Positions 1,754 through 51,789 of a DNA stretch of 64,000 nucleotides are shown one piece after another. A program made the position numbers and the translations under genes. The notes under the pieces were generated by a model. It was not told where the DNA came from. It saw nothing but the letters and a program-made list of their open reading frames with translations, and made no database searches. Origin of the DNA: Amphiscolops sp. MND2022 (taxonomy: Eukaryota); contig OZ076409.1 in NCBI GenBank assembly GCA_964187785.1, positions 15,316,001-15,380,000 of the forward strand, given 5' to 3'. The stretch's first letter is position 1; every line of letters begins with the position of its first letter.

Positions 1754-1763
1754 CTGACAAAAA

Positions 1764-9389: not shown

Positions 9390-9508
9390 AGGCTACAACA
9401 CCTGGTGTTCCCAAGCGGTCTCCCATCCAAGTACTAACCAGGCCCTATGTTGTTTAACTTCGGTGATCGGACGAGAACCGGTGCATTCAACTTGGTATGG
9501 TCGTAGCC
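9390..9508 (-). rRNA. 5S rRNA gene, copy 4 (U17A variant)
   Basis: 119-nt 5S sequence; one substitution at 9492. Confidence 0.95.
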
Positions 9509-10288
9509 GATCATTGTAAAATCAATAGCTTTATATGCTTAACAACAAAATTACGTACAATGATACGAAAATTTTCTCGGTCAAAATACGCGTAACTTTT
9601 AAGTTAGTGCAGACTAGCTTGTTCCTTGTTCAAAAATTGGGCAGCAGACCACTTTCGCAGTCTGCTTTCAAATAAAACTTATCAATAGGGTTGGAATACT
9701 TACCTATTTAATAAGTTTATCACAACAATTAGGCTAAAAGCAAAGAGTCAATTTTTGGAGCGCGAGACTCCTATCTGCGGTACGGACTTACCATTACCAG
9801 CCAACAACTTGTTTTGAGGAGAAATTCTCATGAAAAGACGACGTTTCAAGTTATTGACATCTGATGAAACAAAAATATTCCAGAAAAATTGTGAGAAAGC
9901 AAAATTTTGACTCTATTACGAAAATGTATGCTGAAAAGCATAAATTAGTAAGCTTAAAAATGAAATTCCATGTATTATCAAAAGTCGACTCAGGAGTGTG
10001 AAAAACACGTTTTAGGGGTAATTTTGGGCCCTCTTTCCAATGCCGTTGTCCGTTTTTTGCTATCTGTTCATTTTGACCCCTTTTGCAAAACTGTCACCGA
10101 AGTTAAACCACATTTTGTGAAAATAGTAAAAATGACATAACTCAATGAAAATTCAAGTGATGGCGGCGAAAATTTCAGCATGGGGGTTTTTTTGGACGCT
10201 CTTTCCAATGCCGTTGTCCGTTTTTTGCTATCTGTTCATTTTGACCCCTTTTGCAAAACTGTCACCGAAGTTAAACCACATTTCTGAC

Positions 10289-10294
10289 AAAAAA
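10289..10294 (-). terminator. Pol III oligo-T terminator of 5S gene; example copy, T6-T7 after every gene
   Basis: A6-A7 run on plus strand abutting the 5S 3' end. Confidence 0.85.
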
Positions 10295-10412
10295 GGCTAC
10301 AACACCTGGTGTTCCCAAGCGGTCTCCCATCCAAGTACTAACCAGGCCCTATGTTGTTTAACTTCGGTGATCGGACGAGAACCGGTGCATTCAACATGGT
10401 ATGGTCGTAGCC
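10294..10412 (-). rRNA. 5S rRNA gene, copy 5 (local consensus)
   Basis: 119-nt 5S sequence, 904 bp after copy 4. Confidence 0.97.
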
Positions 10413-10439: not shown

Positions 10440-11691
10440 TGCTTAACAACAAAATTACGTACAATGATACGAAAATTTTCTCGGTCAAAATACGCGTAAC
10501 TTTTAAGTTAGTGCAGACTAGCTTGTTCCTTGTTCAAAAATTGGGCAGCAGACCACTTTCGCAGTCTGCTTTCAAATAAAACTTATCAATAGGGTTGGAA
10601 TACTTACCTATTTAATAAGTTTATCACAACAATCATATACATATATAAAGGGAGACCGGACAAATTCGCTGATTGGTTGAGATACGCTCGGTGATACGCG
10701 CTGCTGCACTACAGTTCAAAAGAAGTTTCCGAGATGAGCGGTGAGAAAATCTGTTTCTGACTTTCGAAATAGACGTTTCAGAATCTCCAGATCTAATCAA
10801 CTGTGGATAGCGTAGAGGTTGCGTGTTAGACTTTCAACCCAATGTCTTGAGTTCGATTCTCGCCATCGATTTTTTTTTCAAAAAAATTGTCAGCGTGAAC
10901 AGTCTTTTAAAAGCAATGGCGTTCTTCTTTTTCCTTAATGGTGCGCTTGCAACTACTGTTCAGCAAAAGATCGTGGCCTAGAGGTTGCGTTGGTTGTCAG
11001 GTTCGTCGGGTGTTATTCTGGTAGCTTTGGGTTCCATCCCCAGGATGGACATGGTTCAGCACTTGAATTGATAGTGTTATGGTTTAAACCCAACTTGATT
11101 GTTCATTTCGACACATACCGTATATAGGACTATAAGTTCGTTCATTATTTGAGTTGGGACGCTTATTTTGGAAGCGGCAAACTTTTCAACATAAAGATTT
11201 TTGGACTATTTCCAATAACGTTGTACTTTTTTTCACATCTCATCAACAGTCAATGACGTAGTGGTTGCGTGTTAGATTTCCATTCCAATGTCTTTAGTTC
11301 GATTCCCTCATTCAATTTTTTTAAAAAAACTTTGTCAGCGTGCACAGTCTTTCAAAAGCACTGGATTATTCTTTTCCCTTAGTGGTGCGCCTAAAACCAC
11401 TGTTTCGCAAGAGATCGTGGCCTAGAGGTTGCGTGGTTGTCAGGTTCGTCCGGTGTTATTCTGGTAGCTTTGGGTTCGATCCCCGGGAGGAACATTGTTC
11501 AGCTCTTAAATTGATAGTGTTATGGCTTACTTAAACCAACTTGATTGTTCATTTCGACACATTCCGTATATAGGATTATAAGTTCGTTCATTATTTGAAT
11601 TGGAACGCTTACTTTGGAAGCGGCAAAATTTTCAACATAAGGATTTTTGGACTCTTTCCAATAACGTTGTCGATTTTTTCACATCTTTTCA

Positions 11692-11760
11692 ACAGTCAAT
11701 GGCGTAGTGGTTGCGTGTTAGATTTCCATTCCAATATCTTGAGTTCGATTCCCTCAATCA
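11692..11760 (+). pseudogene. tRNA-like module 1 of the satellite monomer (example)
   Basis: A box TGGCGTAGTGG, weak anticodon-like arm ttaga-tttccat-tccaa, B box GAGTTCGATTC at tRNA spacing; no proper acceptor stem. Confidence 0.6.
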
Positions 11761-13182
11761 TAATTTTTTTTAAACTTTTGTCAGCGTGCACAGTCTTTCA
11801 AAAGCACTGGATTATTTTTTTCAATTAGTGGTGCGCCTAAAACCACTGTTTCGCAAGATATCGTGGTCTAGATGTTGCGTTGGTGGTTAGGTTTGGTATA
11901 GCGTTGCTCTGGTATCTTTGGGTTCGGTCCCCGGGGATGGAATGTTCCGCACTTGAATTGATGGAGTTTTTTTGCTTACACTTAACGTGGTTGTTTAATT
12001 CGACAAAAAGCGAATATAGCTTTCTGGATTCGCCCAAAAATTAGAATTGGAATGCTTAGTTTGGAAGCGGCAAAATTTTTCAACATAGGGATTTTTGGAC
12101 TCTTTCCAATAACGTTGTCCATTTTTTCACATCTTTTCAACAGTCAATGGCGTAGTGGTTGCGAGTTAGATTTCCTTTCCAAAGTGTTGAGGTAGTTTCC
12201 CTCTATCAAAACTTTTTCAAAAACTTAGTCAGCTTGGACAGTCTTTCAAAAGCACTGGATTATTCTTTTCCCTTAGTGGTACGCCTAAAACCACTGTTTC
12301 GCAAGATATCGTAGCCCAGAGGTTGCATTGGTGGTTAGGTTTGGTATAGCGTTGTTCTGGTATCTTTGGGTTCGTTCCCCGGGGATGGAATATGTTCCGC
12401 ACTTGAATTGATAGTTTTATTGCTTACACCCAACTTGGTTGTTTACTTCGACACATACCGAATATAGCATTCTAAATTCGTCCATAATTTGAATTGGAAT
12501 GCTTACTTTGGAAGCGGCAAATTTTCCAGCATAGGGCTTTTTGGGCTCTTTCCATTAACGTTGTCCTGTTTTTCACAGCTTTTCAACAGTCAATGGCGTA
12601 GTGTTTGCGTGTTAGATTTCCATTCCAAATTCTTGAGTTCGTTTCCCTCAATCAAAACTTTTTCAAATACTTAGTCAGCTTGGACAGTCTTTCAAAAGCA
12701 CTGGATTTTTCTTTTCCCTTAGTGGTACGCCTAAAACCACTGTTTCGCAAGATATCGTAGCCTAGAGGTTGCGTTGGTGGTTAGGTTTGGTATAGCGTTG
12801 TTCAGGTATCTTTGGGTTCGGTCCCCGGGGATGGAATTTGTTCCCACTTGAACTGATAGTGTTATTGCTTACACCCAACTTGGATGTTTAATTCGACACA
12901 TACCGAATATAGCATTCTGAATTGGAATGCTTAGTTTGGAAGCGACAAAATTTTCAACATAGGGATTTTTGAACTCTTTCCAATAACGTTGTCCATTTTT
13001 TCACATCTTTTCAACAGTCAATGGCGTAGTGGTTGCGTGTTAGATTTCCATTCCAAAGTCTTGAGTTCGTTTCCCTCAATCAAAACTTTTTCAAAAACTT
13101 AGTCAGCTTGGACAGTCTTTCAAAAGCACTGGATTATTCTTTTCCCTCAGTGGTGCGCCTAAAACGACTGTTTCGCAAGATA

Positions 13183-13262
13183 TCGTGGCCTAGAGGTTGC
13201 GTTGGTGGTTAGGTTTGGTGGAGCGTTGTTCTGGTATCTTTGGGTTCGGTCCCCGGGGATGG
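13183..13262 (+). pseudogene. tRNA-like module 2 of the satellite monomer (example)
   Basis: A-box-like TGGCCTAGAGG and B-box-like GGTTCGGTCC (GGTTCGATCC in some monomers) with longer spacing. Confidence 0.5.
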
Positions 13263-16200
13263 CACTTGTTCCTCACTTGAATTGATAGAGTTTTACTGCT
13301 TACACCCAACGTGGTTGTTCAATTCGACACATACCGAAAATAGCTTTCTGAATTCGTCCAAATTTAGAATTGGAATGCTTACTTTGGAAGCGACAAATTT
13401 TTCAACATAGGGATTTTTGAACTCTTTCCAATAACGTTGTCCATTTTTTCACATTTTTTCGACAGTCAATGGCGTAGTGGTTGCGTGTTAGATTTCCATT
13501 CCAAAGTCTTGAGTTCGTTTCCCCCAATCAGAACTTTTTCAAAAACTTAGTCAGCTTGGACAGTCTTTCAAAAGCACTGGGTTATTCTTTTCCCTCAGTG
13601 GTGCGCCTAAAACCACTGTTTCGCAAGATATCGTGGCCTAGAGGTTGCGTTGGTGGTTAGGTTTGGTGGAGCGTTGTTCTGGTATCTTTGGGTTCGGTCC
13701 CCGGGGATGGCATTTGTATCTCACTTGAATTGATAGAGTTTTACTGCTTACACCCAACGTCGTTGTTTAATTCGACACATACCGAATATGGCTTTCTGAA
13801 TTCGTCCAAAATTAGAATTGGAATGCTTACTTTGGAAGCGGCAAATTTTTCAACATAGGGATTTTTGGACTCTGTCCAATGACGTTGTCCTTTTTTCCAC
13901 ATCTTTTCAACACAGCAATGGCGTAGTGGTTGCGTGTTAGATTTCCATTCCATTGTCTTGAGTTCGTTTCTCTCAATCAAAAATTTTTTAAAAACTTAGT
14001 CAGCTTGGACAGTCTTTCAAAAGCACTGGATTATTCTACTCCCTTAGTGGTACGCCTAAAACCACTGTTTCGCAAGATATCGTAGCCTAGAGGTTACGTT
14101 GGTGGTTAGGTTTGGTATAGCGTTTTTCAGGTATCTTTGGGTTCGGTCCCCGGGGATGGAATATGTTCCCACTTGAATTGATAGTGTTATTGCTTACACA
14201 CAACTTGGATGTTTAATTCGACACATACCGAATATAGCATTCTGATTTCGTCCACAATTTGAATTGGAATGCTTAGTTTGGAAGCAACGAAATTTTCAAC
14301 ATAGGGGTTTCTGAACTCTTTCCAATAACGTTGTCCAATTTTTCACATCTTTTCAACAGTCAATGTCGTAGTGGTTGCGTGTTAGATTTCCATTCCAAAG
14401 TCTTGAGTTCGTTTCCCTCAATCAAAACTTTTTCAAAAACTTAGTCAGCTTGGACAGTCTTTCAAAAGCACTGGATTATTCTTTTCCCTCAGTGGTGCGC
14501 CTAAAACGACTGTTTCGCAAGATATCGTGGCCTAGAGGTTGCGTTGGTGGTTAGGTTTGGTGGAGCGTTGTTCTGGTATCTTTGGGTTCGGTCCCCGGGG
14601 ATGGCACTTGTTCCTCACTTGAATTGATAGAGTTTTACTGCTTACACCCAACGTGGTTGTTTAATTCGACACATATCGATTATAGCTTTCTGAATTCGTC
14701 CAAATTTAGAATTGGAATGCTTACTTTGGAAGCGACAAAATTTTCAACATAGGGATTTTTGAACTCTTTCCAATAACGTTGTCCATTTTTTCACATCTTT
14801 TCGACAGTCAATGGCGTAGTGGTTGCGTGTTAGATTTCCATTCCAATGTCTTGAGTTCGATTCCATCAATCAAAACTTTTTCAAAAACTTAGTCAGCTTG
14901 GACAGTCTTTCAAAAGCATTGGATTATTCTTTTTCCTCAGTGGTGCGCCTAAAACGACTGTTTCGCAAGATATCGTGGTCTAGAGGTTGCGTTGGTGGTT
15001 AGGTTTGATGGAGCGTTGTTCTGGTATCTTTGGGTTCGGTCCCCGGGGATAGCATTTGTTCCTCACTTGAATTGATAGAGTTTTACTGCTTACACCCAAC
15101 GTGGTTGTTCAATTCGACACATACCGAAAATAGCTTTCTGAATTCGTCCAAATTTAGAATTGGAATGCTTACTTTGGAAGCGACAAATTTTTCAACATAG
15201 GGATTTTTGAACTCTTTCCAATAACGTTGTCCATTTTTTCAGCTTTTTTCGACAGTCAATGGCGTAGTGGTTGCGTGTTAGATTTCCATTCCAAAGTCTT
15301 GAGTTCGTTTCCCCCAATCAGAACTTTTTCAAAAACTTAGTCAGCTTGGACAGTCTTTCAAAAGCACTGGGTTATTCTTTTCCCTCAGTGGTGCGCCTAA
15401 AACCACTGTTTCGCAAGATATCGTGGCCTAGAGGTTGCGTTGGTGGTTAGGTTTGGTGGAGCGTTGTTCTGGTATCTTTGGGTTCGGTCCCCGGGGATGG
15501 CATTTGTATCTCACTTGAATTGATAGAGTTTTACTGCTTACACCCAACGTCGTTGTTTAATTCGACACATACCGAATATGGCTTTCTGAATTCGTCCAAA
15601 ATTAGAATTGGAATGCTTACTTTGGAAGCGGCAAATTTTTCAACATAGGGATTTTTGGACTCTGTCCAATGACGTTGTCCTTTTTTCCACATCTTTTCAA
15701 CACAGCAATGGCGTAGTGGTTGCGTGTTAGATTTCCATTCCATTGTCTTGAGTTCGTTTCTCTCAATCAAAAATTTTTTAAAAACTTAGTCAGCTTGGAC
15801 AGTCTTTCAAAAGCACTGGATTATTCTACTCCCTTAGTGGTACGCCTAAAACCACTGTTTCGCAAGATATCGTAGCCTAGAGGTTGCGTTGGTGGTTAGG
15901 TTTGGTATAGCGTTTTTCAGGTATCTTTGGGTTCGGTCCCCGGGGATGGAATATGTTCCCACTTGAATTGATAGTGTTATTGCTTACACACAACTTGGAT
16001 GTTTAATTCGACACATACCGAATATAGCATTCTGATTTCGTCCACAATTTGAATTGGAATGCTTAGTTTGGAAGCAACGAAAATTTCAACATAGGGATTT
16101 TTGAACTCTTTCCAATAACGTTGTCCTTTTTTTCACATCTTTTCAACAGTCAATGGCGTAGTGGTTGCGTGTTAGATTTCCATTCCAAAGTCTTGAGTTC

Positions 16201-19064
16201 GTTTCCCTCAATCAAAATTTTTTCAAAAACTTAGTCAGCTTGGACAGTCTTTCAAAAGCACTGAATTATTCTTTTCCATCAGTGGTGCGCCTAAAACCAC
16301 TGTTTCGCAAGATATCGTGGCCTAGAGGTTGCGTTGGTGGTTAGGTTTGGTGGAGCGTTGTTCTGGTATCTTTGGGTTCGGTCCCCGGGGATAGCATTTG
16401 TTCCTCACTTGAATTGATAGAGTTTTACTGCTTACACCCAACGTGGTTGTTCAATTCGACACATACCGAAAATAGCTTTCTGAATTCGTCCAAATTTAGA
16501 ATTGGAATGCTTACTTTGGAAGCGACAAATTTTTCAACATAGGGATTTTTGAACTCTTTCCAATAACGTTGTCCATTTTTTCAGCTTTTTTCGACAGTCA
16601 ATGGCGTAGTGGTTGCGTGTTAGATTTCCATTCCAAAGTCTTGAGTTCGTTTCCCCCAATCAGAACTTTTTCAAAAACTTAGTCAGCTTGGACAGTCTTT
16701 CAAAAGCACTGGGTTATTCTTTTCCCTCAGTGGTGCGCCTAAAACCACTGTTTCGCAAGATATCGTAGCCTAGAGGTTGCGTTGGTGGTTAGGTTTGGTA
16801 TAGCGTTTTTCAGGTATCTTTGGGTTCGGTCCCCGGGGATGGAATATGTTCCCACTTGAATTGATAGTGTTATTGCTTACACACAACTTGGATGTTTAAT
16901 TCGACACATACCGAATATAGCATTCTGATTTCGTCCACAATTTGAATTGGAATGCTTAGTTTGGAAGCAACGAAAATTTCAACATAGGGATTTTTGAACT
17001 CTTTCCAATAACGTTGTCCATTTTTTCACATCTTTTCAACAGTCAATGGCGTAGTGGTTGCGTGTTAGATTTCCATTCCAAAGTCTTGAGTTCGTTTCCC
17101 TCAATCAAAATTTTTTCAAAAACTTAGTCAGCTTGGACAGTCTTTCAAAAGCACTGAATTATTCTTTTCCATCAGTGGTGCGCCTAAAACCACTGTTTCG
17201 CAAGATATCGTGGCCTAGAGGTTGCGTTGGTGGTTAGGTTTGGTGGAGCGTTGTTCTGGTATCTTTGGGTTCGGTCCCCGGGGATGGCATTTGTTCCTCA
17301 CTTGAATTGATAGAATTTTACTGCTTACACCCAACGTAGTTGTTTAATTCGACACATAACGAATATAGCTTTCTGAATTCGTCCAAAATTAGAATTGGAA
17401 TGCTTTTTTTGGAAGCGGCAACTTTTTCAACATAGGGATTTTTGGACTCTGTCCAATAATGTTGTCCATTTTTTCACATCTTTTCAACAGGCAATGGAGT
17501 AGTGGTTGCGTGTTAGATTTCCATTCCAATGTCTTGAGTTCGATTCCCTCAATCAAAAATTTTAAAAAAAATTTGTCAGCGTGGAAAGTCTTTCGAAAGC
17601 ACTGGAATATTCTTTTACCTTAGTGGTGCGCATAAAACCGCTGTTTCGCAAGATATCGTTGCCTAGAGGTTGCGTTGGTGGTTAGGTTTGGTATAGCGTT
17701 GTTCTGGTATCTTTGGGTTCGGTCCCTGGGGAAGGAATATGTCCCGCACTTGAATTCATAGTGTTATTTCTTACACCCAACTTGGTTGTTCACTTCGACA
17801 AATACCGAATATAGCATTCTGTATTCGTCCATAATTTGAATTGGAATGCTTAGTTTGGAAGCGGCGAAATTTTCAACATAGGGATTTTTGGACTCTTTCC
17901 AATAACGTTGTCCATTTTTTCACATCTTTTCAACAGTCAATGGCGTAGTGGTTGCGTGTTAGATTTCCATTCCAATGTCTTGAGTTATATTCACTCAATC
18001 ATAATTTTTTTTAAAAACTTTGTCAGCGTGCACAGTCTTTTAAAAGAACTGGATTTTTCTTTTCCCTTAGTGGTGCGCCTAAAACCAATGTTTCGCAAGA
18101 TATTGTGACCTAGAGGTTGCGTGGTGGTCAGGTTCGCTCGTGTGTTATTTTGGTACATTTAGGTTCGATTCCCGGGATGGACTTGGATACGCACTTGATT
18201 TGATAGTTTGGTTTTGCTTTCACCCAATTTGGTTGTTCCACACGTCAAGACTCTAAGTGCTTTTATAAACCAAAATCCATGTGCTTTTGGGAAAAAGTAC
18301 GTCCACTATCGCGGAGTTTTAATCAACAACCGATAGCGTAGAGGTTGCGTATCAGATTCTCATTCCAATGTCTAGCGTTCGATCCCCTATATCGATTTGT
18401 TTTTCAAACTTTGAACAATGAACAGTCTTTCAAAAGCACTGAATTTTTCTTTTTTCTCAGTGGTGAGCTAAATGCCACTGTTTCGCAAGATATCGTGGCC
18501 TAAAATTATTTACGTTGGTGGATTGGATCGTTAGAGTTCTTATGTGTTTGTTGTCTAGCTTTGTCTTTTTCGAAGCGCTCTGAAGGAATAGTTAAGATCT
18601 TACAGGCCTTTGAAATCCATGACCTGGGTGTTTTCAGGGGAGATGTCCACCATCATCAACCGATAGCGTAGAGGTTACGTACTAGCCTCTCATTTCAATG
18701 TCTTGAGTTCGATTCTCTCTAGCAACTTTGTTTTTCAAACTTCTCTTTCCCTCATCCAATGGTAAGTCCACTATCACATAGCTGCAACCAACAGTGGATG
18801 GTGAAGAGGTCGTGTACTAGGCTCTCATAACAACTGCTTGAGTTCGAAACCCTCAATCAACTTTTTTTTCGCAGAATGTCATCGTGCTTCTGGAACATTG
18901 TCTGCAAAGTTAAACCACGTTTTTTGACAAAGTCAATAAAGTCCACGAAATCAAGTGCAGACATTCAGTCAACATTCCATAGAAGGCAGAAACAATTTCA
19001 AAGTTCGTGGTAGTTTGAGATTTTTTCCAATGCAGTTATACATTCGTTTCCATTAAATAGGATC

Positions 19065-21985
19065 CTCAATCAAAACTTTTTTAAAGACGTTGTCAGCGTG
19101 GACAGTCTTTCAAAAGCACTGGATTATTCTTTTCCCTCAGTGGTGCGCCTAAAACCGCTGTTTCGCAAGATATCGTGGCCTAGAGGTTGCGTTGGTGGTT
19201 AGGTTTGGTGGAGCGTTGTTCTGGTATCTTTGGGTTCGGTCCCCGGGGATGGCATTTGTTCCTCACTTGAATTGATAGAGTTTTACTGCTTACACCCAAC
19301 GTGGTTGTTTAATTCGACACATACCGAATATAGCTTTCTGAATTCGTCCAAAATTAGAATTGGAATGCTTACTTTGGAAGCGGCAAATTTTTTAACATAG
19401 GAATTTTTGGACTCTGTCCAATAACGTTGTCCATTTTTTCACATCTTTTCAACAGTCAATGGCGTAGTGGTTACGTGTTAGATTTCCATTCCAAAGTCTT
19501 GAGTTCGTTTCCCTCAATCAAAATTTTTTCAAAAAATTAGTCAGCTTGGACAGTCTTTCAAAAGCACTGGATTATTCTTTTCCCTCAGTGGTGCGCCTAA
19601 AACCATTGTTTTGCAAGATATCGTGGCCTAGAGGTTGCGTTGGTGGTTAGGTTTGGTGGAGCGTTGTTCTGGTATCTTTGGGTTCGGTCCCCGGGGATGG
19701 CATTTGTTCCTCACTTGATTTGATAGAGTTTTACTGCTTACACCCAACGTGGTTGTTTAATTCGACACATACCGAATATAGCTTTCTGAAGTCGTCCAAA
19801 ACTGAAAATGAAATGCTTACTTTGGAAGCGGCAAATTTTTCAACATAGGGATTTTTGGATTCTTTCCAATCACATTGTCCCTTTTTTCACATCTTTTCAA
19901 CAGTCAATGGCGTAGTGGTTGCGTGTTAGATTTCCATTTTAATGTCTTGAGTTCGATTCCCTCAATCAAAACTTTTTTAAAAACGTTGTCAGCGTGGACA
20001 GTTTTTCAGAAGCACTGGATTATTCTTTTCCCTTAGTGGTGCGCCTTAAACCACTGTTTCGCAAGATATCGTAGCCTAGAGGTTGCGTTGGGATTAGGTT
20101 TGGTATAGCGTTGTTCTGGTATTTTGGGTTCCGTCCCCGGGGATGGAATTTGTTCCGCACTTGAATTGATAGAGTGTTATTGCTTACACCCAACGTGGTT
20201 GTTTAATTCGACACATACCGAATATAGCTTTCTGATTTCGTCCAAAGTTTTAATTAGAATGCATACTTTGGAAGTGGCAAATTTTTCAACATAGGGAATT
20301 TTGGACTCTTTCCATTCACATTGTCCCTTTTTTCACATCTTTTCAACAGTCAATGGCGTAGTGGTTGCGTGTTAGATTTCCATTTCAATGTCTTGAGTTC
20401 GATTCCCTCAATCAAAACTTTTTAAAAACGTTGTCAGCGTGGACAGTTTTTCAGAAGCACTGGATTATTCTTTTCCCTTAGTGGTGCGCCTTAAACCTTT
20501 GTTTCGCAAGATATCGTAGCCTAGAGGTTGCGTTTGGATTAGGTTTGGTATAGAGTTGTTCTGGTATTTTGGGTTCCGTCCCCGGGGATGGAATTTGTTC
20601 CGCACTTGAATTGATAGAGTGTTATTGCTTACACCCAACTTGGATGTTTTATTCGACACATACCGAATATAGCTTTCTGAATTCGTCCAAAATTAGAATT
20701 GGAATGCTTACTTTGGAAGCGGCAAATTTTTCAACATAGGGATTTTTGGACTCTGTCCAAAAACATTGTCCATTTTTTCACATCTTTTCAACAGGCAATG
20801 GAATAGTGGTTGCGTGTTAGATTTCCATTCCAATGTCTTGAGTTCGATTCCCTCAATCAAAACTTTTTAAAAAACTTAGTCAGCGTGGAAAGTCTTTAGA
20901 AAGCACTGGAATATTCTTTGCCCTTAGTGGTGCGCATAAAACCACTGTTTCGCAAGATATCGTGGCCTAGAGGTTGCGTTGGTGGTTAGGTTTGGTATAG
21001 CGTTGTTCTGGTATCTTGGGTTCGGTCCCCGGGGATGGAATTTGTTCCGCACTTGAATTGATAGAGTGTTATTGCTTACACCCAACGTGGTTGTTTAATT
21101 CGACACATACCGAATATAGCTTTCTGAAGTCGTCCAAAACTGAAAATGAAATGCTTACTTTGGAAGCGGCAAATTTTTCAACATAGGGATTTTTGGATTC
21201 TTTCCAATCACATTGTCCCTTTTTTCACATCTTTTCAACAGTCAATGGCGTAGTGGTTGCGTGTTAGATTTCCATTTTAATGTCTTGAGTTCGATTCCCT
21301 CAATCAAAACTTTTTTAAAAACGTTGTCAGCGTGGACAGTTTTTCAGAAGCACTGGATTATTCTTTTCCCTTAGTGGTGCGCCTTAAACCACTGTTTCGC
21401 AAGATATCGTAGCCTAGAGGTTGCGTTGGGATTAGGTTTGGTATAGCGTTGTTCTGGTATTTTGGGTTCCGTCCCCGGGGATGGAATTTGTTCCGCACTT
21501 GAATTGATAGAGTGTTATTGCTTACACCCAACGTGGTTGTTTAATTCGACACATACCGAACATAGTTTTCTGAATTCGTCCAATTTTTGAATTGGAAAGC
21601 TTACTTTGGAAGCGGCAAAAATTTCAACATAGGGATTTTTGGACTCTTTCCAATAACGTTGTACATTTTTTCACGTCTTTTCAACAGTCCATGGCGTAGT
21701 GGTTGCGTGTTAGATTTCCATTCCAATGTCTTGAGTTCGATTCCATCAATCAAAACTTTTCAAACAACGTTGTCAGCGTGGACAGTCTTTCGAAGGCACT
21801 GGAGTATTCTTTTCTCTTAGTGGTGCGCCTAAAACCACTGTTTCGCAAGATATTGTGGCCTAGAGGTTGCGTGGTGGTCAGGTTCGTTCGGGTGTTATTT
21901 CGGTACATTTGGGTTCGATTCCCTGGATGGACTTGGATACGCACTTGAGTTGATAGTTTGGTTTTGCTTCCACCCAAATTGGTTG
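19065..21985 (+). repeat. ~446-bp satellite, array B of element 1 (~6-7 monomers)
   Basis: Same monomer resumes after an ~820-bp interruption. Confidence 0.9.
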
Positions 21986-24900
21986 TTCAATTTAATTGTT
22001 GTATAATGGTTGTTCAATGGTTGTATAAAAGGAAATTCGTATGATAATTGAACACTAATAATTCCTTCTGACTTTGGCCTTTCCTTTGCTGAATTGCTCA
22101 AACGTCAAGACTCGAAATGCTTTTATAAACCAAAATCCATGTGCTTTTGGGAAAAAGGACGTCCACTATCAAGGAGTTTGAATCAACAACCGATAGCGTA
22201 GAGGTTGCGTATCAGATTCTCATTCCAATGTCTAGAATTCCTCTTTTGTTAAACCTTCCAAACCTTCTTCTGTTAAACATTTGACATTTGTCACTAATGG
22301 AGTTTCACTTGAACTCAGCTTCCAAATCTTTTGATTTTGAATTTTTGAAATCCACGTCGAAAAGATATGTGTAGTTTGTATAAACTAGATAGTTCATATT
22401 GGACACACTTGAAGGACCTGAAGTCAAATCACTTCAGTAACTCTTATTTGCTATATCTGAAATGAAGATGTGATCATCGAAAGACATTTCTTCAGAATGG
22501 AGTCCAGACAACAGACTATAGCGCGGAGGTAACGTAGTTGGCTCTTAGCCAGATGGCATTGTGTTCGAATTCCTCTACCACTTTTTTGTTCAACGATAAG
22601 ATGGAGCACAAGATCACTCTTTAGTCCAGATAAAACAGGCAATTAGTATTCAAAACTGCGTGTATTCGAAGAAGAGACGTCCACTATCACGGATCGCCAA
22701 TCCACCACTGATAGCGTAGAGGTTACGAACTAGGCTCTCATTACAGTGTCTTGAGATCGATTCTCTCTATAACTTTATTTTTCAAAACTTTGTCAGCGTG
22801 AACAACCTTTGAAAAGTTCTCGGGTTGTTTCATTCTTTTAGTGGCCAGACTGCATCCACTGTTTTGCATGATGTCAAGGCCTAGAAGCTGCCTTGGTGAT
22901 CAAGTTCGTTTAGGTATTGTTCGGGTATCTCTGGGTTCGATTCTCAATTGAAGGTATACGTAAACAAAAGTAGAGTCACAAAAACCTATATCCGAACAAG
23001 TTATTGTAAAGTAGTGACTTTTTACATCTGGGTACCTAAAGTCTGTGCTTAAAGTCGGAAACAATCGACATACAGTCGATGCATATTCTCCATGGCGCAC
23101 GTGTTGTCCACTATCACGCAGCTTGAATAAAAAACCGTTAGCGTAAAGGTTGCGTATCAAACGTTGCTTCCAATGCCTTGAGTTTGATCCCCTCTATCGA
23201 TCTTCTTCTTTCAAATATTGTCAGCGTCAACAGTCTTTCAAAAGTACTAATTTCAAAAGACTGCTCTTTTTTCTTAGTGGTTCCCTAACAACCACTGTGT
23301 TTCAAGATATCGTGGCCTAGAGGTTACGTTGGTGGATGATTTTGTTGGAGTGTTGTTCTGGTAGCTTTGTATTCGATCCCCGGGGTGGACATGCATCCAC
23401 ACTTGTGTTGGTACTTTGGTTTTCTTTTCACCCAGCATGGTTATTTAATTTGGCATTAATCATAAAGGCCAAACGCCGTTGAATAATTGAATACCAAACA
23501 TTCCTTTGGACTTTGCCTTTTCCTGTTCTGGATCTCGCAAACGTCAAGACTCTAAGAGCTTTTAGAAACCAAAATCCGGGTGTTTTTGCAAAAGAGGCGT
23601 CCACAATCACGGACCTTCAATCAACAAACAATAGCGTAGAGGTTGCGTGTCAGATTCTCATTCCAAAGCCTTGAGTTCGCTTCCCTCTATCAACATTGTT
23701 TTTCTATTTTTAGTTCACATTTTCCTATGCTAAATTCACTATTACATAGCTGCAATCAACAGGGGGTGGTGCAGAGGTTGTGTACTAGGCTCTCATAATA
23801 ATCGCTCGAGTTCGAAACCCTTTGTTCAACTTTTGTTTGGCAATGAATGCGATCGTGATTCTGCAACAATGTCACCGAAGTTAAACCACCTTTTCTGACG
23901 AAGTTTTCGACAGAAAAGTAATGACAAAATTAATTAACAAAAAAGAAGAGGACAGTCATTGGAAGGCAACACAAATTACAGCATGGAAGTTTTCGTGGAC
24001 ACCCTCGCCAATGGTTTTGTTTATTTTCTCCCATTTCTTCAATTTGACCCACTTTGCAACAGTTTCACTGAAGTTAAACCACTTTTTACGACAAAATGAA
24101 AACATGACATCACTCAGTGAAGATTCGAGTGATGGCGGCAACAGTTTCACCATGGGGGTTTGTTTGGACACTCTTTCCGATGGTGGCGTCCGTTTTTTCC
24201 AGTCTTTTCAATATGACCCCCTTTGCAAAACTGTCACCAAAGTTAAGCCACTTTTCTTGACAAAAACGCTACAACAGCGTAAAAATTTTGATGGAGCCTC
24301 TCTCTAACGTTGTTTTTTACTTTGTTCCATATGTTCAACCTGACTATTTTTGCAACACTGCTCCGATGCTAAAAACTGTTGTTTTGTGTTCTCTATCACA
24401 TAGCTGCAATCAATAATGGATGGTGCAGAGGTTGTGTACTAGGCTCTCATAACAATCGCTCGAGTTCGAGACCCTTTAGTCAACATTTGTTTTGCAAAGA
24501 ACGCGATCGTGATTCTGCAACGAAGGTAAACCACGTTTTTTGGAAAAGTCTAGAAACCACAAAGTTATGACCATACAATTCAACAAAAACGCAGAGAACA
24601 CTCATTGGATGGCACAAAAAAAACAGCATAGAAGGTTTCGTGGACACCCCTTTTCAATGGCAATGTCTATTTTCTTCCATTTGTTTTTCAATTTTACCCA
24701 TTTTGCAGCACGGTCACCTAAATTGAAGCTCACTTTTTGACAAAATGAACTAAGGCATAACTCAGTGAAATTTCCAAAGAACGCAGCAAAACTTTTACCA
24801 TGAGGATTTTACCGCTTTTTCCAATGCTGTTCTCCAATTTTTAACATTTTATCAATTTGACTCACTTTGCAAATCTGTCATCAAAGTTAAACCACGTTTC

Positions 24901-25746
24901 TTGACAAAAACGCTAAAACAGCGTGGGAGTTTTGGTGGACGGTCACTCCAACGTTGTTGTCCACTTTTTTCCATTTTTCTTGAATACTTTTGAAACACTG
25001 CTCTGACGCTAAACTTGTTTTGTGTTCACTATCACATAGGTGCAATCAACAGTGGATGGCGCAGAGGTCGTGTACTAAATTCCCATAACATTCGCTTGAG
25101 TTCGAAACCCTCAGTCAACTTTTGTACTGCAAAGTATTTATACAGGCAAGTAGTATTCAAAATTTGTGTGTATTCGAAGAAGAGACGTCCACTATCACGG
25201 ATCTCGAATCAACGACCGATGGCGTAGAGGTTGCGTGCTAGGCTCTCATTCCAGTGTCTTGAGATCGATCCTCTCTCTCGATTTTTTTCTTTCACATATT
25301 GTCAGCGTGAACAGCCTTTCAAAAGCACTAGGCCACTCTTTTCTTTTAGTGGTTCGCTTACAACCAATGTTTTGCAAGATCTCGTGGCCTAGAGGTTACG
25401 TTGGTGGTCAGGTTCGTTAGAGTGTTGTTCTGGTAGCTTTGGGTTCGATCCCCGGGTTGAACTTGGATCAGCACTTGAATTGATAGTTTGGTTTTCCTTT
25501 AACCCAACTTTTGTTAAATTTGACATTAATCATATAGGGCAAATGTTGTTGAACTATTGAATACCAAAAATTCCTTTGGACTTCGGCTTTTCCTTTTCTG
25601 GATTACTCGAAGGTCAAGACTCTAAATGCTTTTAGAAAGCAATATCCGGATGTTTTCGGAAAAGAGGCATCTACTATCATGGATAACAGTTTGGAATTTT
25701 CTCATTCACTTTTTGATATCTCATATTTAACAAACCTCTTTAATTA
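21985..25746 (+). repeat. 3' region of element 1: mosaic of diverged tRNA-like modules and 5S-spacer-like segments (orthologous to ~45150-48886 in element 2)
   Basis: Repeated ccactatcac...TRGCGTAGAGG...GTTCGA modules at ~22161, 22680, 23106, 23600, 24394, 25026, 25187. Confidence 0.75.
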
Positions 25747-25775
25747 GCCGCCGGAGGCGGCAGCGGGTTTGCTAG
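25747..25775 (+). other. Helitron 3' terminal hairpin and CTAG
   Basis: 6-bp GC stem GCCGCC/GGCGGC with 3-nt loop, 10 nt before CTAG; in element 2 the difference falls in the loop. Confidence 0.85.
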
Positions 25776-26340
25776 TTAGGCTAAAAGCAAAGAGTCAATT
25801 TTTGGAGCGCGAGACTCCTATCTGCGGTACGGACTTACCATTACCAGCCAACAACTTGTTTCGAGGAGAAATTCTCATGAAAAGACGACGTTTCAAGTTA
25901 TTGACATCTGATGAAACAAAAATATTCCAGAAAAATTGTGAGAAAGCAAAATTTTGACTCTATTACGAAAATGTATGCTGAAAAGCATAAATTAGTAAGC
26001 TTAAAATTGAAATTCCATGTATTATCAAAAGTCGACTCAGGAGTGTGAAAAACACGTTTTAGGGGTAATTTTGGGCCCTCTTTCCAATGCCGTTGTCCGT
26101 TTTTTGCTATCTGTTCATTTTGACCCCTTTTGCAAAACTGTCACCGAAGTTAAACCACATTTTGTGAAAATAGTAAAAATGACATAACTCAATGAAAATT
26201 CAAGTGATGGCGGCGAAAATTTCAGCATGGGGGTTTTTTTGGACGCTCTTTCCAATGCCGTTGTCCATTTTTTGCTATCTGTTCGTTTTGACCCCTTTTG
26301 CACAACTGTCACCGAAGTTAAACCACATTTCTGACAAAAA

Positions 26341-27363: not shown

Positions 27364-27719
27364 GATCATTGTAAAATCAATAGCTTTATATGCTTAACAA
27401 CTCGGTCAAAATACGCGAAACTTTTAAGTTAGTGCAGACTAGCTTGTTCCTTGTTCAAAAATTGGGCAGCAGACCACTTTCGCAGTCTGCTTTCAAATAA
27501 AACTTATCAATAGGGTTGGAATACTTACCTATTTAATAAGTTTATCACAACAATCATATACATATATAAAGGGAGACCGGACAAATTCGCTGATTGGTTG
27601 AGATACGCTCGGTGATACGGGCTGCTGCACTACAATTCAAAAGAAGATTCCGAGATGAGCGGTGAGAAAATCTGTTTCTGACTTTCGAAATAGACGTTTC
27701 AGAATCTCCAGCTCTAATC

Positions 27720-30700
27720 AACGGTGGATAGCGTAGAGGTTGCGTGTTAGACTCTCAACCCAATGTCTTGAGTTCGATTCTCGCCATCGATCTTTTTTTT
27801 TTAAAAAAATGTCAGCGTGAACAGTCTTTTAAAAGCATTGACGTTCTTCTTTTTCTTTAATGGTGCGCTTGCAACTACTGTTCAGCAAGAGATCGTGGCC
27901 TAGAGGTTGCGTTGGTTGTCAGGTTCGTCTGGTGTTATTCTGGTAGCTTTGGGTTCCATCCCCGGGATGGACATGGTTCAGCACTTGAATTGATAGTGTT
28001 ATGGCTTAAACCCAACTTGATTGTTCATTTCGACACATACCGTATATAGGACTATAAGTTCGTTCATTATTTGAATTGGAACGCTTATTTTGGAAGCGGC
28101 AAATTTTTCAACTTAAGGATTTTTGGACTATTTCCAATAACGTTGTACTTTTTTTCACATCTCATCAACAGTCAATGACGTAGTGGTTGCGTGTTAGATT
28201 TCCATTCCAATGTCTTGAGTTCGATTCCCTCATTCAATTTTTTTAAAAAAAACTTTGTCAGCGTGCACAGTCTTTCAAAAGCACTGGATTATTCTTTTGC
28301 CTTAGTGGTGCGCCTAAAACCACTGTTTCGCAAGAGATCATGGCCTAGAGGTTGTGTGGTTGTCAGGTTCGTCGGGTGTCATTCTGGTAGCTTTGGGTTC
28401 GATCCCCGGGATGAACATGGTTCAGCACTTAAATTGATAGTGTTATGGCTTAAACCCAACTTGATTGTTCATTTCGACACATACCGTATATAGGACTATT
28501 AGTTCGTTCAATATTTGAATTGGAACGCTTACTTTGGAAGCGACAAATTTTTCAACATAAGGATTTTTGGACTCTTTCCAATAACGTTGTACTTTTTTTC
28601 ACATCTCCACAACAGTCAATGGCGTAGTGGTTGCGTGTTAGATTTCCATTCCAATGTCTTGAGTTCGATTCCCTCAATCAAAACTTTTTTAAAAACGTTG
28701 TCAGCGTGGACAGTCTTTCAAAAGCACAGGATTATTCTTTTCCCTCAGTGGTGCGCCTAAAACCACTGTTTCGCAAGATATCGTAGCCTAGAGGTTGCGT
28801 TGGTGGTTAGGTTTGGTAGAGCGTTGTTCTGGTATCTTTGGGTTCGGTCCCCGGGAGTGGCATTTGTTCCTCACTTGATTTGATAGAGTTTCAGTGCTTA
28901 CACCCAACGTGGTTGTTTAATTCGACAAGAACTGAATATAGCTTTCTGAATTCGTCCAATATTTGAATTGGAATGCTTACTTTGGAAACGGCAAAATTTT
29001 CAACATAGGGATTTTTGGACTCCTTCCAGTAACGTTGTCTATTTTTTCACATCTTTTCAATAGTCAATGGCGTAGTGGTTGCGTGTTAGATTTCCATTCC
29101 CATATCTTGAGTTCAATTCTCTCAATCATATTTTTTTAAAAAAATTTGTCAGCGTGCACAGTCTTTCAAAAGCACTGGATTATTCTTTTCAATTAGTGGT
29201 GCGCCTAAAACCACTGTTTCGCAAGATATCGTGGCCTAGAGGTTGCGTTGGTAGTTAGGTTTGGTATAGCGTTGTTCTGGTATCTTTGGGTTCGATCCCC
29301 GGGGATGGAATTTGTTCCGCACTTGAATTGATGGAATTTTATTGCTTACACCTAACGTGGTTGTTTAATTCGACAAAAACCGAATATAACTTTCTGAATT
29401 CGCCCAAATTTGAATTGGAATGCTTACTTTGGAAGCGGCAAATTTTTCAACATAGGGATTTTTTGACTCTTTCCAATAACGTGGTATATTTTTCACATCT
29501 TTTCAACAGTCAATGGCGTAGTGGTTGCGTGTTAAATTTCCATTCCAATGTCTTGAGTTCGATTCCCTCAATTAAAACTTTTTTAAAAACGTTGCCAGCG
29601 TGGACAGTCTTTCAGAAGCACGGGATTATTCTTTTGCCTTAGTGGTGCGCCTAAAACCACTGTTTCGCAAGAGATCATGGCCTAGAGGTTGTGTGGTTGT
29701 CAGGTTCGTCGGGTGTCATTCTGGTAGCTTTGGGTTCGATCCCCGGGATGAACATGGTTCAGCACTTAAATTGATAGTGTTATGGCTTAAACCCAACTTG
29801 ATTGTTCATTTCGACACACACCGTATATAGGACTATTAGTTCGTTCAATATTTGAATTGGAACGCTTACTTTGGAAGCGACAAATTTTTCAACATAAGGA
29901 TTTTTGGACTCTTTCCAATAACGTTGTACTTTTTTTCACATCTCCACAACAGTCAATGGCGTAGTGGTTGCGTGTTAGATTTCCATTCCAATGTCTTGAG
30001 TTCGATTCCCTCAATCAAAACTTTTTTAAAAACGTTGTCAGCGTGGACAGTCTTTCAAAAGCATAGGATTATTCTTTTCCCTCAGTGGTGCGCCTAAAAC
30101 CACTGTTTCGCAAGATATCGTGGCCTAGAGGTTGCGTTGGTGGTTAGGTTTGGTAGAGCGTTGTTCTGGTATCTTTGGGTTCGGTCCCCGGGAGTGGCAT
30201 TTGTTCCTCACTTGATTTGATAGAGTTTCAGTGCTTACACCCAACGTGGTTGTTTAATTCGACAAGAACTGAATATAGCTTTCTGAATTCGTCCAATATT
30301 TGAATTGGAATGCTTACTTTGGAAACGGCAAAATTTTCAACATAGGGATTTTTGGACTCCTTCCAGTAACGTTGTCCATTTTTTCACATCTTTTCAATAG
30401 TCAATGGCGTAGTGGTTGCGTGTTAGATTTCCATTCCCATATCTTGAGTTCAATTCTCTCAATCATATTTTTTTAAAAAAATTTGTCAGCGTGCACAGTC
30501 TTTCAAAAGCACTGGATTATTCTTTTCAATTAGTGGTGCGCCTAAAACCACTGTTTTGCAAGATATCGTGGCCTAGAGGTTGCGTTGGTGGTTAGGTTTG
30601 GTATAGCGTTGTTCTGGTATCTTTGGGTTCGGTCCCCGGGGTGGAATTTGTTGCGCACTTGAATTGATAGAGTTTTATTGCTTACACCCAACGTGGTTGT

Positions 30701-42700: not shown

Positions 42701-43190
42701 AATTCATAGTGTTATTTCTTACACCCAACTTGGTTGTTTACTTCGACAAATACCGAATATAGCATTCTGTATTCGTCCATAATTTGAATTGGAATGCTTA
42801 GTTTGGAAGCGGCAAAATTTTCAACATACGGATTTTTGGACCCTTTCCAATAACGTTGTCCATTTTTGCACATATTTTCAACAGTCAATGGCGTAGTGGT
42901 TGCGTGTTAGATTTCCATTCCAATGTCTTGAGTTATATTCCCTCAATCATAGTATTTTAAAAAATTTTGTCAGCGTGCACAGTCTTTCAAAAGAACTGGA
43001 TTATTCTTTTCCCTTAGTGGTGCGCCTATAACCACTGTTTCGCAAGATATTGTGACCTAGAGGTTGCGTGGTGCTCAGGTTCGCTCGTGTGTTATTTTGG
43101 TACAATTGGGTTCGATTCCCGGGATGGACTTGGATACGCACTTGATTTGATAGTTTGGTTTTGCTTTCACCCAACTTGGTTGTTCAACAC
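27720..43190 (+). repeat. ~446-bp satellite, array A of element 2 (~34-35 monomers)
   Basis: Same monomer in continuous tandem. Confidence 0.93.
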
Positions 43191-44019
43191 GTCAAGACTC
43201 TAAGTGATTTTATAAACCAAAATCCACGTGCTTTTGGGAAAAAGTACGTCCACTATCACGGAGTTTTAATCAACAACCGATAGCGTAGAGGTTCCGTATC
43301 AGATTCTCATTCCAATGTCTAGAGTTCGATCCCCTATATCGATTTGTTTTTCAAACTTTGAACAGTGAACAGTCTTTCAAAAGCACTGGATTTTTCTTTT
43401 CCCTCAGTGGTGAGCAAAATGCCACTGTTTCGCAAGATATCGTGACCTAAAATTATTTACGTTGGTGGATAGGATCGTTGGAGTTCCTATGTGTTTGTTG
43501 TCTAGCTTTGTCTTTTTCGAAGCGCTCTGAATGAATAGTTAAGATCTTACAGTCCTTTGAAATCCATGACCTGGGTGTTTTCAGGGGAGATGTCCACCAT
43601 CGTCAACCGATACCGTAGAGGTTACGTACTAACCTCTCATTTCAATGTCTTGAGTTCGATTCTCTCTATCAACTTTGTTTTTCAAACTTCTTTTTCCCTC
43701 ATCCAATGGTAAGTCCACTATCTCATAGCTGCAACCAACAGTGGATGGTGAAGAGGTCGTGTACTAGGCTCTTATAACAACTGCTTGAGTTCGAAACCCT
43801 CAATCAACTTTTTTTTCGCAGAATGTCATCGTGACTCTGGAACATTGTCTGCAAAGTTAAACCACGTTTTTTGACAAAGTCGATGAAGTCCACGAAATCA
43901 AGTGCTTTCAGTCAACATTTAGTCAACATTCCATAGAAGGCAGAAACAATTTCAAAGTTCGTGGTAGTTCGAGATTTTTTCCAATGCAGTTATACGTTTG
44001 TTTCCATTAAATAGGGTCC

Positions 44020-51405: not shown

Positions 51406-51789
51406 GATCATTGTAAAATCAATAGCTTTATATGCTTAACAACAAAATTACGTACAATGATACGAAAATTTTCTCGGTCAAAATACGCGTAACTTTTAAG
51501 TTAGTGCAGACTAGCTTGTTCCTTGTTCAAAAATTGGGCAGCAGACCACTTTCGCAGTCTGCTTTTAAATAAAACTTATCAATAGGGTTGGAATACTTAC
51601 CTATTTAATAAGTTTATCACAACAATCATATACATATATAAAGGGAGACCGGACAAATTCGCTGATTGGTTGAGATACGCTCGGTGATACGCGCTGCTGC
51701 ACTACAGTTCAAAAGAAGATTCCGAGATGAGCGGTGAGAAAATCTGTTTCTGACTTTCGAAATAGACGTTTCAGAATCTCCAGATCTAA

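Follow-up and report, generated by a model that had tools for sequence, protein, structure and literature searches.

The satellite in the window, meaning the whole 64,000-nt stretch of Amphiscolops sp. DNA analyzed here, is probably the expanded interior of an insertion that splits a spliced leader (SL) RNA gene; the insertion is likely a non-autonomous Helitron, and its arrays likely grew by neutral tandem duplication while the promoter base A58 was being lost. The earlier note on this DNA, in which the monomer was described as a dimer of tRNA-like Pol III promoter modules, overlooked this context: all arrays belong to the interior of a single Helitron-like insertion in an SL gene, and every one of the 209 modules falls within the element (Table 1). 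The locus would unite two known routes of satellite birth, the central repeats of Helitrons and tRNA-derived Pol III repeats, with a history that can be read from old single copies with intact promoters, through edge monomers, to an expanded core with broken B boxes.

Table 1. Positions of the SL-5S genes, element copies, satellite arrays and modules in the window.
Feature	Position	Strand	Remarks
Intact SL RNA gene (empty site)	9600..9734	-	3' end approximate
5S rRNA gene adjoining element copy 1	10294..10412	-	117.5 bits
Split SL RNA gene, 3' part	10500..10632	-	Leader bases 7-31, donor, stem-loops; 3' end approximate
Sm-type site of split SL RNA gene	10535-10542	-	Between stem-loops
Split SL RNA gene, leader bases 1-6	25776..25781	-	Upstream region still attached
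Element copy 1	10633..25775	+	15,143 bp, with arrays and diverged modules; junctions rejoin exactly to empty site
Element copy 2	27554..48915	+	21,362 bp; arrays of ~35 and 2.6 monomers
Element copy 3	51626..64000	+	Cut by window end; arrays of ~18 and at least 8 monomers
Element 5' terminus	10633..10650	+	TC, then TA-rich stretch with TATATAAA; 40 nt identical at 3/3 left junctions
Element 3' terminus	25747..25775	+	6-bp all-GC hairpin 25747-25761, then CTAG 25772-25775
Satellite array 1a	10810..18237	+	~17 monomers (16.7 copies), 446-448 bp
Internal interruption	18238..19063	+	Shared by the three element copies; contains three diverged single-copy A modules and one decayed B
Interruption A modules of copy 1	near 18327, 18657, 18792	+	
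Satellite array 1b	19064..21992	+	~6.6 monomers
Old diverged region	21993..25745	+	Nine A modules (one truncated), three B modules, 5S 3'-flank paralogues
First module A (edge copy)	10803..10875	+	Canonical A and B boxes, T9 run
Typical array module A	13015..13089	+	A box 13022-13032, B box 13065-13073, T58, then T-run
Typical array module B	13179..13257	+	A box 13186-13196, B box 13244-13252, G58
Monomer tail segment	13390..13460	+	Homologous to 5S 3'-flank repeat (73% over 75 bp to 10163-10237)

Inserts interrupt the leader of an SL-5S tandem unit

The SL RNA gene and the 5S rRNA gene lie on one strand and form a 904-bp tandem unit; the window holds ten 5S rRNA genes, all on the minus strand. 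Further intact SL RNA genes have their 5' ends at 26685, 49824 and 50727. The four intact units have the features of SL RNA genes, namely a 31-nt leader identical to the published acoel mRNA leader, a donor in stem-loop I and an Sm site between the stem-loops, and the RNA folds better than shuffled sequences (z -2.1 to -2.4). Of the 10 or 11 units that the window contains, 6 or 7 have a leader interrupted by an insert; three of these inserts are the Helitron-like element and four are a 1.6-kb insert, one of these four being cut at the window start. The 1.6-kb insert is unrelated to the Helitron-like element and breaks the same leader in its four units; its ORFs matched no Pfam family (4 of 4), and an Atlas search gave no usable match. 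The locus documents SL-5S linkage in an acoel, together with two different inserts in one leader exon. We also considered whether the repeat in the 5S 3' flank is a decayed 5S gene and rejected this, as two of 12 alignments gave p values of 0.012 and 0.016 that were nonsignificant once corrected.

The element has Helitron-type ends

The unique parts of the three element copies are 96-99% identical. The insertion point lies after leader base 6 of the SL RNA gene, at an A|T site, and comparison of three left and two right junctions with four empty sites gave exact A|T rejoining, with a one-base ambiguity in register (a 1-bp duplication would read identically). Helitrons insert between A and T without target duplication. 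Their other hallmarks are a 5' TC with a TA-rich start, a 3' hairpin and a CTRR end (PMC13404089, PMC12001565); here, CTAG ends the element at both right junctions and is preceded, 10 nt upstream, by a 15-nt GC hairpin, the typical Helitron hairpin being 16-20 nt (PMC13404089). Among 515 other 40-nt windows taken from the non-redundant element, none reaches six G-C pairs in a stem, and base frequencies give a probability of 8e-5 for A|TC..CTRR|T. The element has no TIR or LTR (end similarity p 0.69 direct, 0.58 inverted). A poly(A) tail and ORFs are lacking as well, the longest stretch free of stop codons being 140 aa. We conclude from these terminal features that the 15-21 kb insertion is likely a non-autonomous Helitron. 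This assignment rests on one site, because no second insertion site or autonomous partner was seen (a metagenome scan for the 3' end gave 0 matches). A literature search, with Repbase and most subscription papers outside its reach, returned no Helitron in an SL exon and no description of this locus.

An origin other than a Helitron, either as a piece of a Pol III cluster placed ectopically by recombination or repair or as a target-specific element (Dada or an SL-targeting non-LTR element), seems highly improbable. There is indeed old homology between the element interior and the 5S 3' flank, at 79% over 270 bp (paralogues in the old region are 67-88% identical), target-specific elements of SL, 5S and tRNA genes are known (PMC8869645), and the same leader received the unrelated 1.6-kb insert in four units. 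However, the homology to the 5S 3' flank is internal and absent at the junctions, and the four terminal hallmarks coincide. Dada, TIR and LTR types were each rejected, since the element lacks the 6-7 bp duplication expected for Dada as well as TIRs and LTRs; the lack of poly(A) and of an ORF likewise speaks against a non-Helitron origin.

The monomer joins two unequal modules to a 5S-flank fragment

The satellite has a period of 446-448 bp and comprises ~86 monomers in six arrays, in agreement with the ~85 monomers of ~446 bp reported earlier; array size differs between element copies (~23, 37 and at least 26 monomers). A profile census of the arrays found 85 A and 88 B modules, 17 of each within 10800-18240, and the resulting 173 bear out the earlier figure of well over 150. 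Their plus-strand orientation opposite to the 5S genes was likewise confirmed: all profile matches (115 to the A profile and 97 to the B profile) are on the plus strand and none on the minus strand, as are all 62 strict A..B pairs in the window. Two A/B pairs per monomer exceed chance, as the monomer consensus contains two relaxed pairs, and dinucleotide shuffles gave at least one pair in 23 of 5000 and two pairs in one of 5000. For monomer comparisons, 78 monomers were cut by anchor spacing, and three below 80% consensus identity were dropped, namely one sequence that is not a monomer and the first monomers, those at 10807 and 27728, leaving 75; the last monomers of the arrays are absent from this set and are included in the profile census.

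The monomer consists of one A-B pair joined to a flank fragment. Modules A and B share ~30 nt around the A box (p 0.003), and to this extent the monomer is a dimer; it is not a symmetric one, as the spacers have no detectable homology (p 0.087) and the T8-T54 distances are 44 and 59 nt. The possibility that the monomer tail hides a third module was tested and rejected. The T-runs described after each pair are close to the B box in module A only: all 85 of its copies have at least four consecutive T within 25 nt of that box, as opposed to 0 of 82 copies of module B; a T-run within 60 nt follows the B box in 44 of the 82.

Module A is related to tRNA

The tRNA-like character ascribed to both modules holds for module A. 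The best match to the Rfam tRNA model (RF00005) is module A at 10808-10863; its 24.6 bits fall short of the gathering score of 29, and all of the matches listed for the model are module A on the plus strand, whereas module B gave no match. A Glu anticodon is found in 9 of 13 diverged A copies, and tRNA geometry is kept. Derivation of module A from tRNA is supported at the sequence level, and its ancestor may have been a tRNA-Glu gene. Functional tRNA genes were rejected given the sub-threshold score, the absence of any tRNA called by ARAGORN in the window and a broken cloverleaf: among the 13 diverged copies, pairing amounts to 94% in the D arm, 21% in the acceptor stem and 51% in each of the anticodon and T stems, 49% of cloverleaf cells are paired, and the covariation score was equaled by 191 of 500 shuffles. 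A conserved RNA fold was rejected as well, since RNAalifold returned only six pairs and no double change for module A and a positive (unfavorable) covariation term for module B.

A SINE2 element comprises a head, a body, a LINE-derived region and a simple-repeat tail (PMC10702118). Module A does not show this organization: the T-run directly follows the tRNA part, ~35 nt of upstream flank are shared between copies and no tail was seen. These common upstream flanks point to duplication at the DNA level rather than retroposition; the older single-copy set was copied in this way from a short unit of tRNA origin, made up of an A box, a B box and a T-run. A metagenome scan for the module-A pattern gave 0 matches.

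Promoter conservation is found in the single-copy modules

The promoter-conservation signal lies outside the array, in the single-copy modules, where the cloverleaf is lost. In 13 diverged copies that are only 69% identical, 12 key positions are 96% conserved against a background of 76%, a level matched by none of 100,000 random column sets, although this column test overstates significance because the module copies are related. A T-run follows C61 by 11-18 nt in 12 of the 13 aligned copies. Upstream there are two blocks with conservation of 0.77 and 0.87, separated by sequence at 0.55. Between element copies, the single-copy modules differ at 2 of 167 key positions where 5.8 differences were expected (P 0.07). 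This gives a hint that the single-copy modules may still be under selection rather than inert cargo.

These features could be read to mean that the single-copy modules are living genes for ~75-nt Pol III RNAs, vault-like or of an unnamed class, or TFIIIC anchors, kept by selection on the promoter only, with the satellite as their decayed outgrowth. A Helitron carrier is compatible with this reading, which would give the cargo a current role; we consider it rather unlikely. An alternative panhandle register pairs 72-75% of cells, compared with 21% for the tRNA acceptor, but the panhandle was drawn from the consensus and its covariation is not above that of shuffles (310 of 500 as high), and the folds of single modules are not more stable than those of shuffled sequences (z -0.43 to +1.06). 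Canonical A and B boxes occur at only 16 of 27 non-array A loci, and box conservation may reflect past rather than present selection. Vault RNAs are 80-150 nt long and have a box A with a typical 3' flank and a panhandle; membership in this family was rejected, since the modules are ~70-75 nt long, their box-A flank differs, the panhandle lacks covariation and the Rfam vault model (RF00006) gave no match at E up to 10.

Most array modules have lost A58

Many B boxes had been called degenerate, which is correct but understated the case: canonical A and B boxes together are present in only 29 of 85 A modules and 14 of 88 B modules of the arrays (3/17 and 1/17, respectively, within 10800-18240). 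In the 75 monomers, position 58 is T in 45 A modules and other than A in 62 B modules, which amounts to loss of A58 in 60% and 83%. Module B also has an internal B-like motif, and 70 of 87 copies carry a mutation in it. A58 is a B-box base whose change would be expected to weaken TFIIIC binding. Most copies have lost it, which makes it likely that the array is carried along as a passenger and does not work as a promoter platform. The spacing of the A and B boxes in the arrays falls inside the usable range of 31-93 bp (PMC11724288), yet canonical boxes are found in a minority of monomers.

The earlier proposal that the arrays supply small Pol III RNAs, or act as a dense platform for TFIIIC binding or insulation among the 5S genes, fared poorly in sequence tests, and we regard selection for such a platform, or for a bulk source of small RNAs, in the service of the 5S cluster as quite improbable. 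Higher conservation of the boxes had been proposed as a test; conservation was 0.958 for the boxes against 0.936 elsewhere in the monomer, which is no excess, since 11% of circular mask shifts reach as much (0.11). Derived alleles are in the majority at 2 of 24 key positions, compared with a neutral expectation of 4.0, and both of these are A58; the remaining 22 are ancestral in the array majority, which, like the 59 canonical B boxes left across 38.3 kb of arrays, would suit a platform. TFIIIC binding is driven mainly by the B box and has transcription-independent roles (PMC11724288), which also fits, and with 59 boxes remaining TFIIIC could bind a minority of monomers. The strict strand uniformity of 173 modules beside ten 5S genes can be accounted for by one insertion plus tandem copying, and many SL-5S units of the window have no adjoining array.

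A bolder version would have a giant Helitron carrying tRNA-derived Pol III mini-genes, kept for the promoter alone as TFIIIC anchors or as genes for short RNAs of a new class, into the acoel SL genes of the 5S cluster, the satellite expanding only after A58 was knocked out in both modules through selection against TFIIIC titration near 5S. We find this distinctly unlikely. Purging of A58 was rejected as a demonstrated effect, as its P value is 0.028 when A58 is taken alone and 0.29 when any of the 12 key positions is allowed, and drift therefore suffices.

A model for the origin of the satellite

In the explanation we favor, expansion within a probable Helitron, an element with Helitron-type ends would have entered the 904-bp SL-5S unit after leader base 6, carrying the module set and the 5S 3'-flank paralogues as host cargo presumably captured from a Pol III gene region. 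One A-B pair together with a flank fragment would have become the monomer, whose arrays came to vary in length between element copies. A single insertion was probably multiplied with the SL-5S unit through unequal exchange, rather than by repeated targeting. Most monomers are predicted to bind TFIIIC weakly and to be silent, and the edge and single-copy modules are possible sources of ~75-nt Pol III RNAs. Since monomers with and without A58 alternate within a single array, the locus offers an internal control for the fate of Pol III promoters in satellites, and the two kinds can be distinguished in ChIP or RNA reads.

Comparison with known systems

Tandem clusters of 5S and SL RNA genes are exemplified by C. 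elegans 5S-SL1 (bioRxiv 10.64898/2026.01.07.698080). The Amphiscolops locus is alike in combining SL and 5S in one tandem unit of ~0.9 kb, and differs in that the two genes share a strand, the host is an acoel and the leader is split in most units.

At the level of the module, the likeness to tRNA genes (RF00005) extends to A/B spacing, D arm, anticodon-like loop and T-run terminator, but the modules score below the gathering value and their acceptor, anticodon and T stems are broken. They resemble vault RNAs in that only box A and box B are conserved, in having a terminator and perhaps in a 5'-3' panhandle, and they differ in being shorter than 80 nt, in their tRNA-type interior and in the lack of covariation.

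Tandem repeats derived from tRNA and associated with Pol III are known in amphibians (Xenopus OAX/satellite I, Rana/polIII and Hy/polIII), and the newt PolIII/TAN repeat, derived from tRNA-Glu and about 360 nt long, has been reported to be transcribed in vitro (PMC10702118). The satellite described here resembles them in its tandem unit of a few hundred bases, its tRNA-related segment and the absence of a known parent SINE, and probably shares Glu ancestry with PolIII/TAN, although transcription of its unit is only predicted. In contrast to the amphibian repeats, it has two modules per unit, most of its B boxes are broken and it is nested in a putative DNA transposon.

Helitrons with central satellites are documented in Crassostrea gigas (Helitron-associated satellites) and Xenopus (Heli1Xen1), and the oyster Cg170 arrays average about six monomers. 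The element shares with non-autonomous Helitrons (HLE1/Helitron1) the TC and TA-rich start, the hairpin with CTAG, a noncoding satellite interior and captured host sequence. Unlike the C. gigas and Xenopus elements, it reaches 15-21 kb with 23-37 monomers, and its repeat consists of tRNA-like promoter modules; compared with known Helitrons, it is set apart by its position in an SL exon and by having been copied along with the SL-5S unit, its own mobility being putative.

Satellite arrays and their modules

Tandem Repeats Finder placed a unit of 446-450 bp in six arrays of the window, with ~86 copies in total. Each unit (the monomer) carries two tRNA-like A-box/B-box pairs, modules A and B, and these motif pairs are real, since two relaxed pairs were seen in only 1 of 5000 dinucleotide shuffles of one monomer. 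A search of the window with profiles from diverged copies located 85 module-A loci inside the arrays and 27 beyond them, and 88 module-B loci inside and 9 beyond, all on the plus strand; the ten 5S genes of the window are on the minus strand. The earlier note's account of two box pairs per ~446-bp monomer, well over 150 modules in the window and an orientation opposite to 5S was therefore borne out, whereas the T-runs that it placed downstream of each module occur within 25 nt in 85/85 copies of module A but 0/82 of module B (44/82 within 60 nt). Since the two modules resemble each other over ~30 nt around the A box (p 0.003) while their spacers do not (p 0.087), the monomer is an asymmetric pair of paralogues.

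Coordinates of features in the window
Feature	Position	Strand	Remark
First satellite array	10810-18237
Element copy 1	10633-25775
Element copy 2	27554-48915
Element copy 3	51626 to window end
Leader 5' pieces, 2542-bp units with 1.6-kb insert	1203, 3745, 6287, 8829	minus
Variant leaders of 2542-bp units	start 2108, 4650, 7192	minus
A-module flank 12-mer	18758, 43705, 60180	plus at 18758	overlaps the A-module family's conserved upstream block
Single 904-bp SL-5S unit	9388-10292 and equivalents
5S 3' flank	9977-10283
Flank-subrepeat paralogues in element	23859-25014, 18887-18931
Sm-like U-run and hairpin	9749-9775 and equivalents	plus

A Helitron-like element in the SL exon

All 209 modules lie inside three copies of a long insertion, which splits the leader in the gene for spliced-leader (SL) RNA after base 6 and whose left and right flanks together restore the empty site exactly. 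The element starts with TC and a TA-rich stretch with TATATAAA; at its other end an all-GC hairpin of 6 bp precedes CTAG. It lies between an A and a T, where Helitrons insert. The chance of its terminal letters is ~8e-5, and such a hairpin was found in 0 of 515 other 40-nt stretches of the element. These terminal features are described for canonical Helitrons (PMC13404089, PMC12001565), and suggest Helitron mobility. No TIR, LTR or ORF >140 aa was found in the element, and metagenome scans gave no matches. An insertion of a non-Helitron kind seems very improbable; for Dada, the reported duplications of 6-7 bp (PMC8869645) argue against it.

Because unique sequence is 96-99% identical among the copies, which also have an 826-bp interruption in common and vary in array length, the copies probably represent one insertion multiplied along with the SL-5S unit, with ongoing unequal exchange. 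Older units in the interruption and the 3.8-kb 3' region are 60-94% alike in local alignments, and among them are a duplication of ~650 bp and sequences paralogous to the repeat in the 5S 3' flank (79% over 270 bp); the monomer joins an A-B pair to a fragment of this repeat (73% over 75 bp). Since the diverged A modules have ~35 nt of upstream sequence in common and end at a T-run, they would have arisen by DNA-level duplication of a small gene, not by retroposition.

The SL-5S host unit

Each 5S gene has an SL RNA gene upstream on its own strand, in which stem-loop I holds the leader and splice donor and an Sm-type site separates a second stem-loop from a third (fold z -2.4 and -2.1). The 31-nt leader of the four intact units is identical to that reported as predominant in the acoel Symsagittifera roscoffensis (bioRxiv 10.1101/2022.08.27.505549, PMC9911081), so that the window probably comes from this species or one closely related to it. 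The basic unit, 904 bp long and homogeneous to 99%, links SL and 5S on one strand; the accessible text of the acoel genome paper does not mention 5S linkage. A 168-bp subrepeat makes up the 5S 3' flank; 15 nt of it, on the plus strand, match the 5S A-box region exactly. The element contains diverged paralogues of the subrepeat, and the homology extends ~10 nt into the 5S 3' end; this repeat could conceivably be decayed 5S in origin. A 12-mer ~60 nt upstream of the SL start (9795, minus strand) also occurs in the upstream flank of one A module, possibly as a promoter element or by chance. Within the SL upstream region, a U-run of Sm-like type and the short hairpin after it are probably coincidental.

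The SL exon that the Helitron-like element splits is also broken in four units (window 1-9000) by a second, unrelated insert of ~1.6 kb. Leader bases 1-17 stand before this insert, and behind it comes a full variant leader that differs at 4-5 positions, as if the leader had been duplicated and diverged, or the insert supplied its own leader 5' end. Minus-strand ORF pieces of this insert (e.g. 2959-3369) contain a C-x2-C-x8-H-x4-C motif reminiscent of SL-targeting retroelements and had no match in Pfam or Atlas.

tRNA ancestry of the modules

ARAGORN found no tRNA in the window. The Rfam tRNA model (E-value mode) matched only module A, with scores of 14.7-24.6 bits, under the gathering score (29); module B had no match. 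The tRNA relation proposed in the earlier note is supported, below threshold, for module A. Module A has tRNA geometry (T8 to T54, 44 nt) and likely descended from tRNA-Glu, since 9 of 13 diverged copies have a Glu triplet at the anticodon position (CTC in eight, TTC in one). Pairing in the 13 copies is 94% in the D arm, 21% in the acceptor and 51% in both anticodon and T stems, and cloverleaf covariation is not above shuffles (191/500 as high); the cloverleaf is not maintained. The module at 22512-22590, with a Lys-type anticodon loop, a better paired anticodon stem and no family upstream block, may come from a different tRNA.

Decay in the arrays and conservation outside them

Canonical A and B boxes together remain in 29/85 module-A and 14/88 module-B array copies (3/17 and 1/17 within 10800-18240), a decay that the earlier description of many B boxes as degenerate understated. 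In an alignment of 75 monomers (78 cut, three with <80% identity removed), position 58 of the B box (tRNA numbering) is T in 45 A modules and non-A in 62 B modules; each of the remaining 22 key box positions keeps its canonical base in at least 92%. A58 is the ancestral allele, retained mostly close to array edges, and its change would weaken TFIIIC binding. A bioRxiv paper (10.1101/2025.06.09.658696) counts A58 as one of the B-box positions that are universally conserved in tRNA, and TFIIIC binding is reported to be driven mainly by that box (PMC11724288). Most monomers are thus predicted to bind TFIIIC weakly, and ~75-nt transcripts might be expected from edge and single-copy modules. Across 27731-43184, module-A base 58 changes blockwise (the first 14 aligned monomers carry A and the last 19 T); in module B, G and A take turns at base 58 along part of the second half, which reveals local higher-order repeats.

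The excess box conservation that the earlier note proposed as a check is absent from the array: box columns of the aligned monomers are 0.958 conserved versus 0.936 elsewhere, equaled by 11% of mask shifts. Of 258 callable columns, 43 have a derived allele in the majority; two of these fall among the 24 key positions, where 4.0 would be expected, and both are A58. Drift suffices to explain this double loss because its P, 0.028 taken alone, is 0.29 over 12 positions; selection against active promoters may still lie behind it. That the array is a selected TFIIIC platform we consider improbable given this lack of signal, although 59 canonical B boxes left in 38.3 kb of array, versus 5 outside elements, count against a purely inert reading.

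The 13 diverged A copies comprise 11 single-copy modules, one edge and one core monomer and average 69% identity. In them, twelve promoter positions picked from tRNA invariants are 96% conserved versus 76% for the rest of the body, a value matched by 0/100,000 random column sets, although the relatedness of the copies inflates this significance. Together with a T-run 11-18 nt past C61 in 12/13, this shows that selection, past if not present, has acted on both promoter and terminator. Key positions of single-copy modules differ between element copies at 2/167 sites versus 5.8 expected (P 0.07), no more than a hint of selection since the element multiplied. A living family of mini-genes selected for their promoter is rather unlikely: a vault-like panhandle pairs at 72-75%, but without covariation and short of the vault criteria given in PMC8824774.

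Interpretation and comparison with known systems

The satellite feature is real and its earlier interpretation is in part supported, for the tRNA relation of module A but not for a functional role of the array. The anatomy, junctions, decay and homologies of element and satellite can be read directly, and suggest capture of Pol III units by the element and neutral expansion of the satellite. With moderate confidence, we favor a non-autonomous Helitron that carried old tRNA-derived Pol III units into the SL exon, where one unit pair would have grown into a satellite with its boxes free of selection, and copying of the SL-5S repeat would have multiplied the entire element.

The satellite is not shown to be a SINE, tRNA or vault RNA. 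Central satellites are well documented in Helitrons (PMC8268682), and amphibian tRNA-derived Pol III tandem repeats include PolIII/TAN (from tRNA-Glu), OAX and Rana/polIII (summarized in PMC10702118). The satellite would work like these amphibian repeats. Its components are thus of known kinds; the new aspect is their combination, which we did not find in open-licence literature, of units with two modules each, a Helitron-type carrier of 15-21 kb, an SL-exon site and 5S co-amplification.
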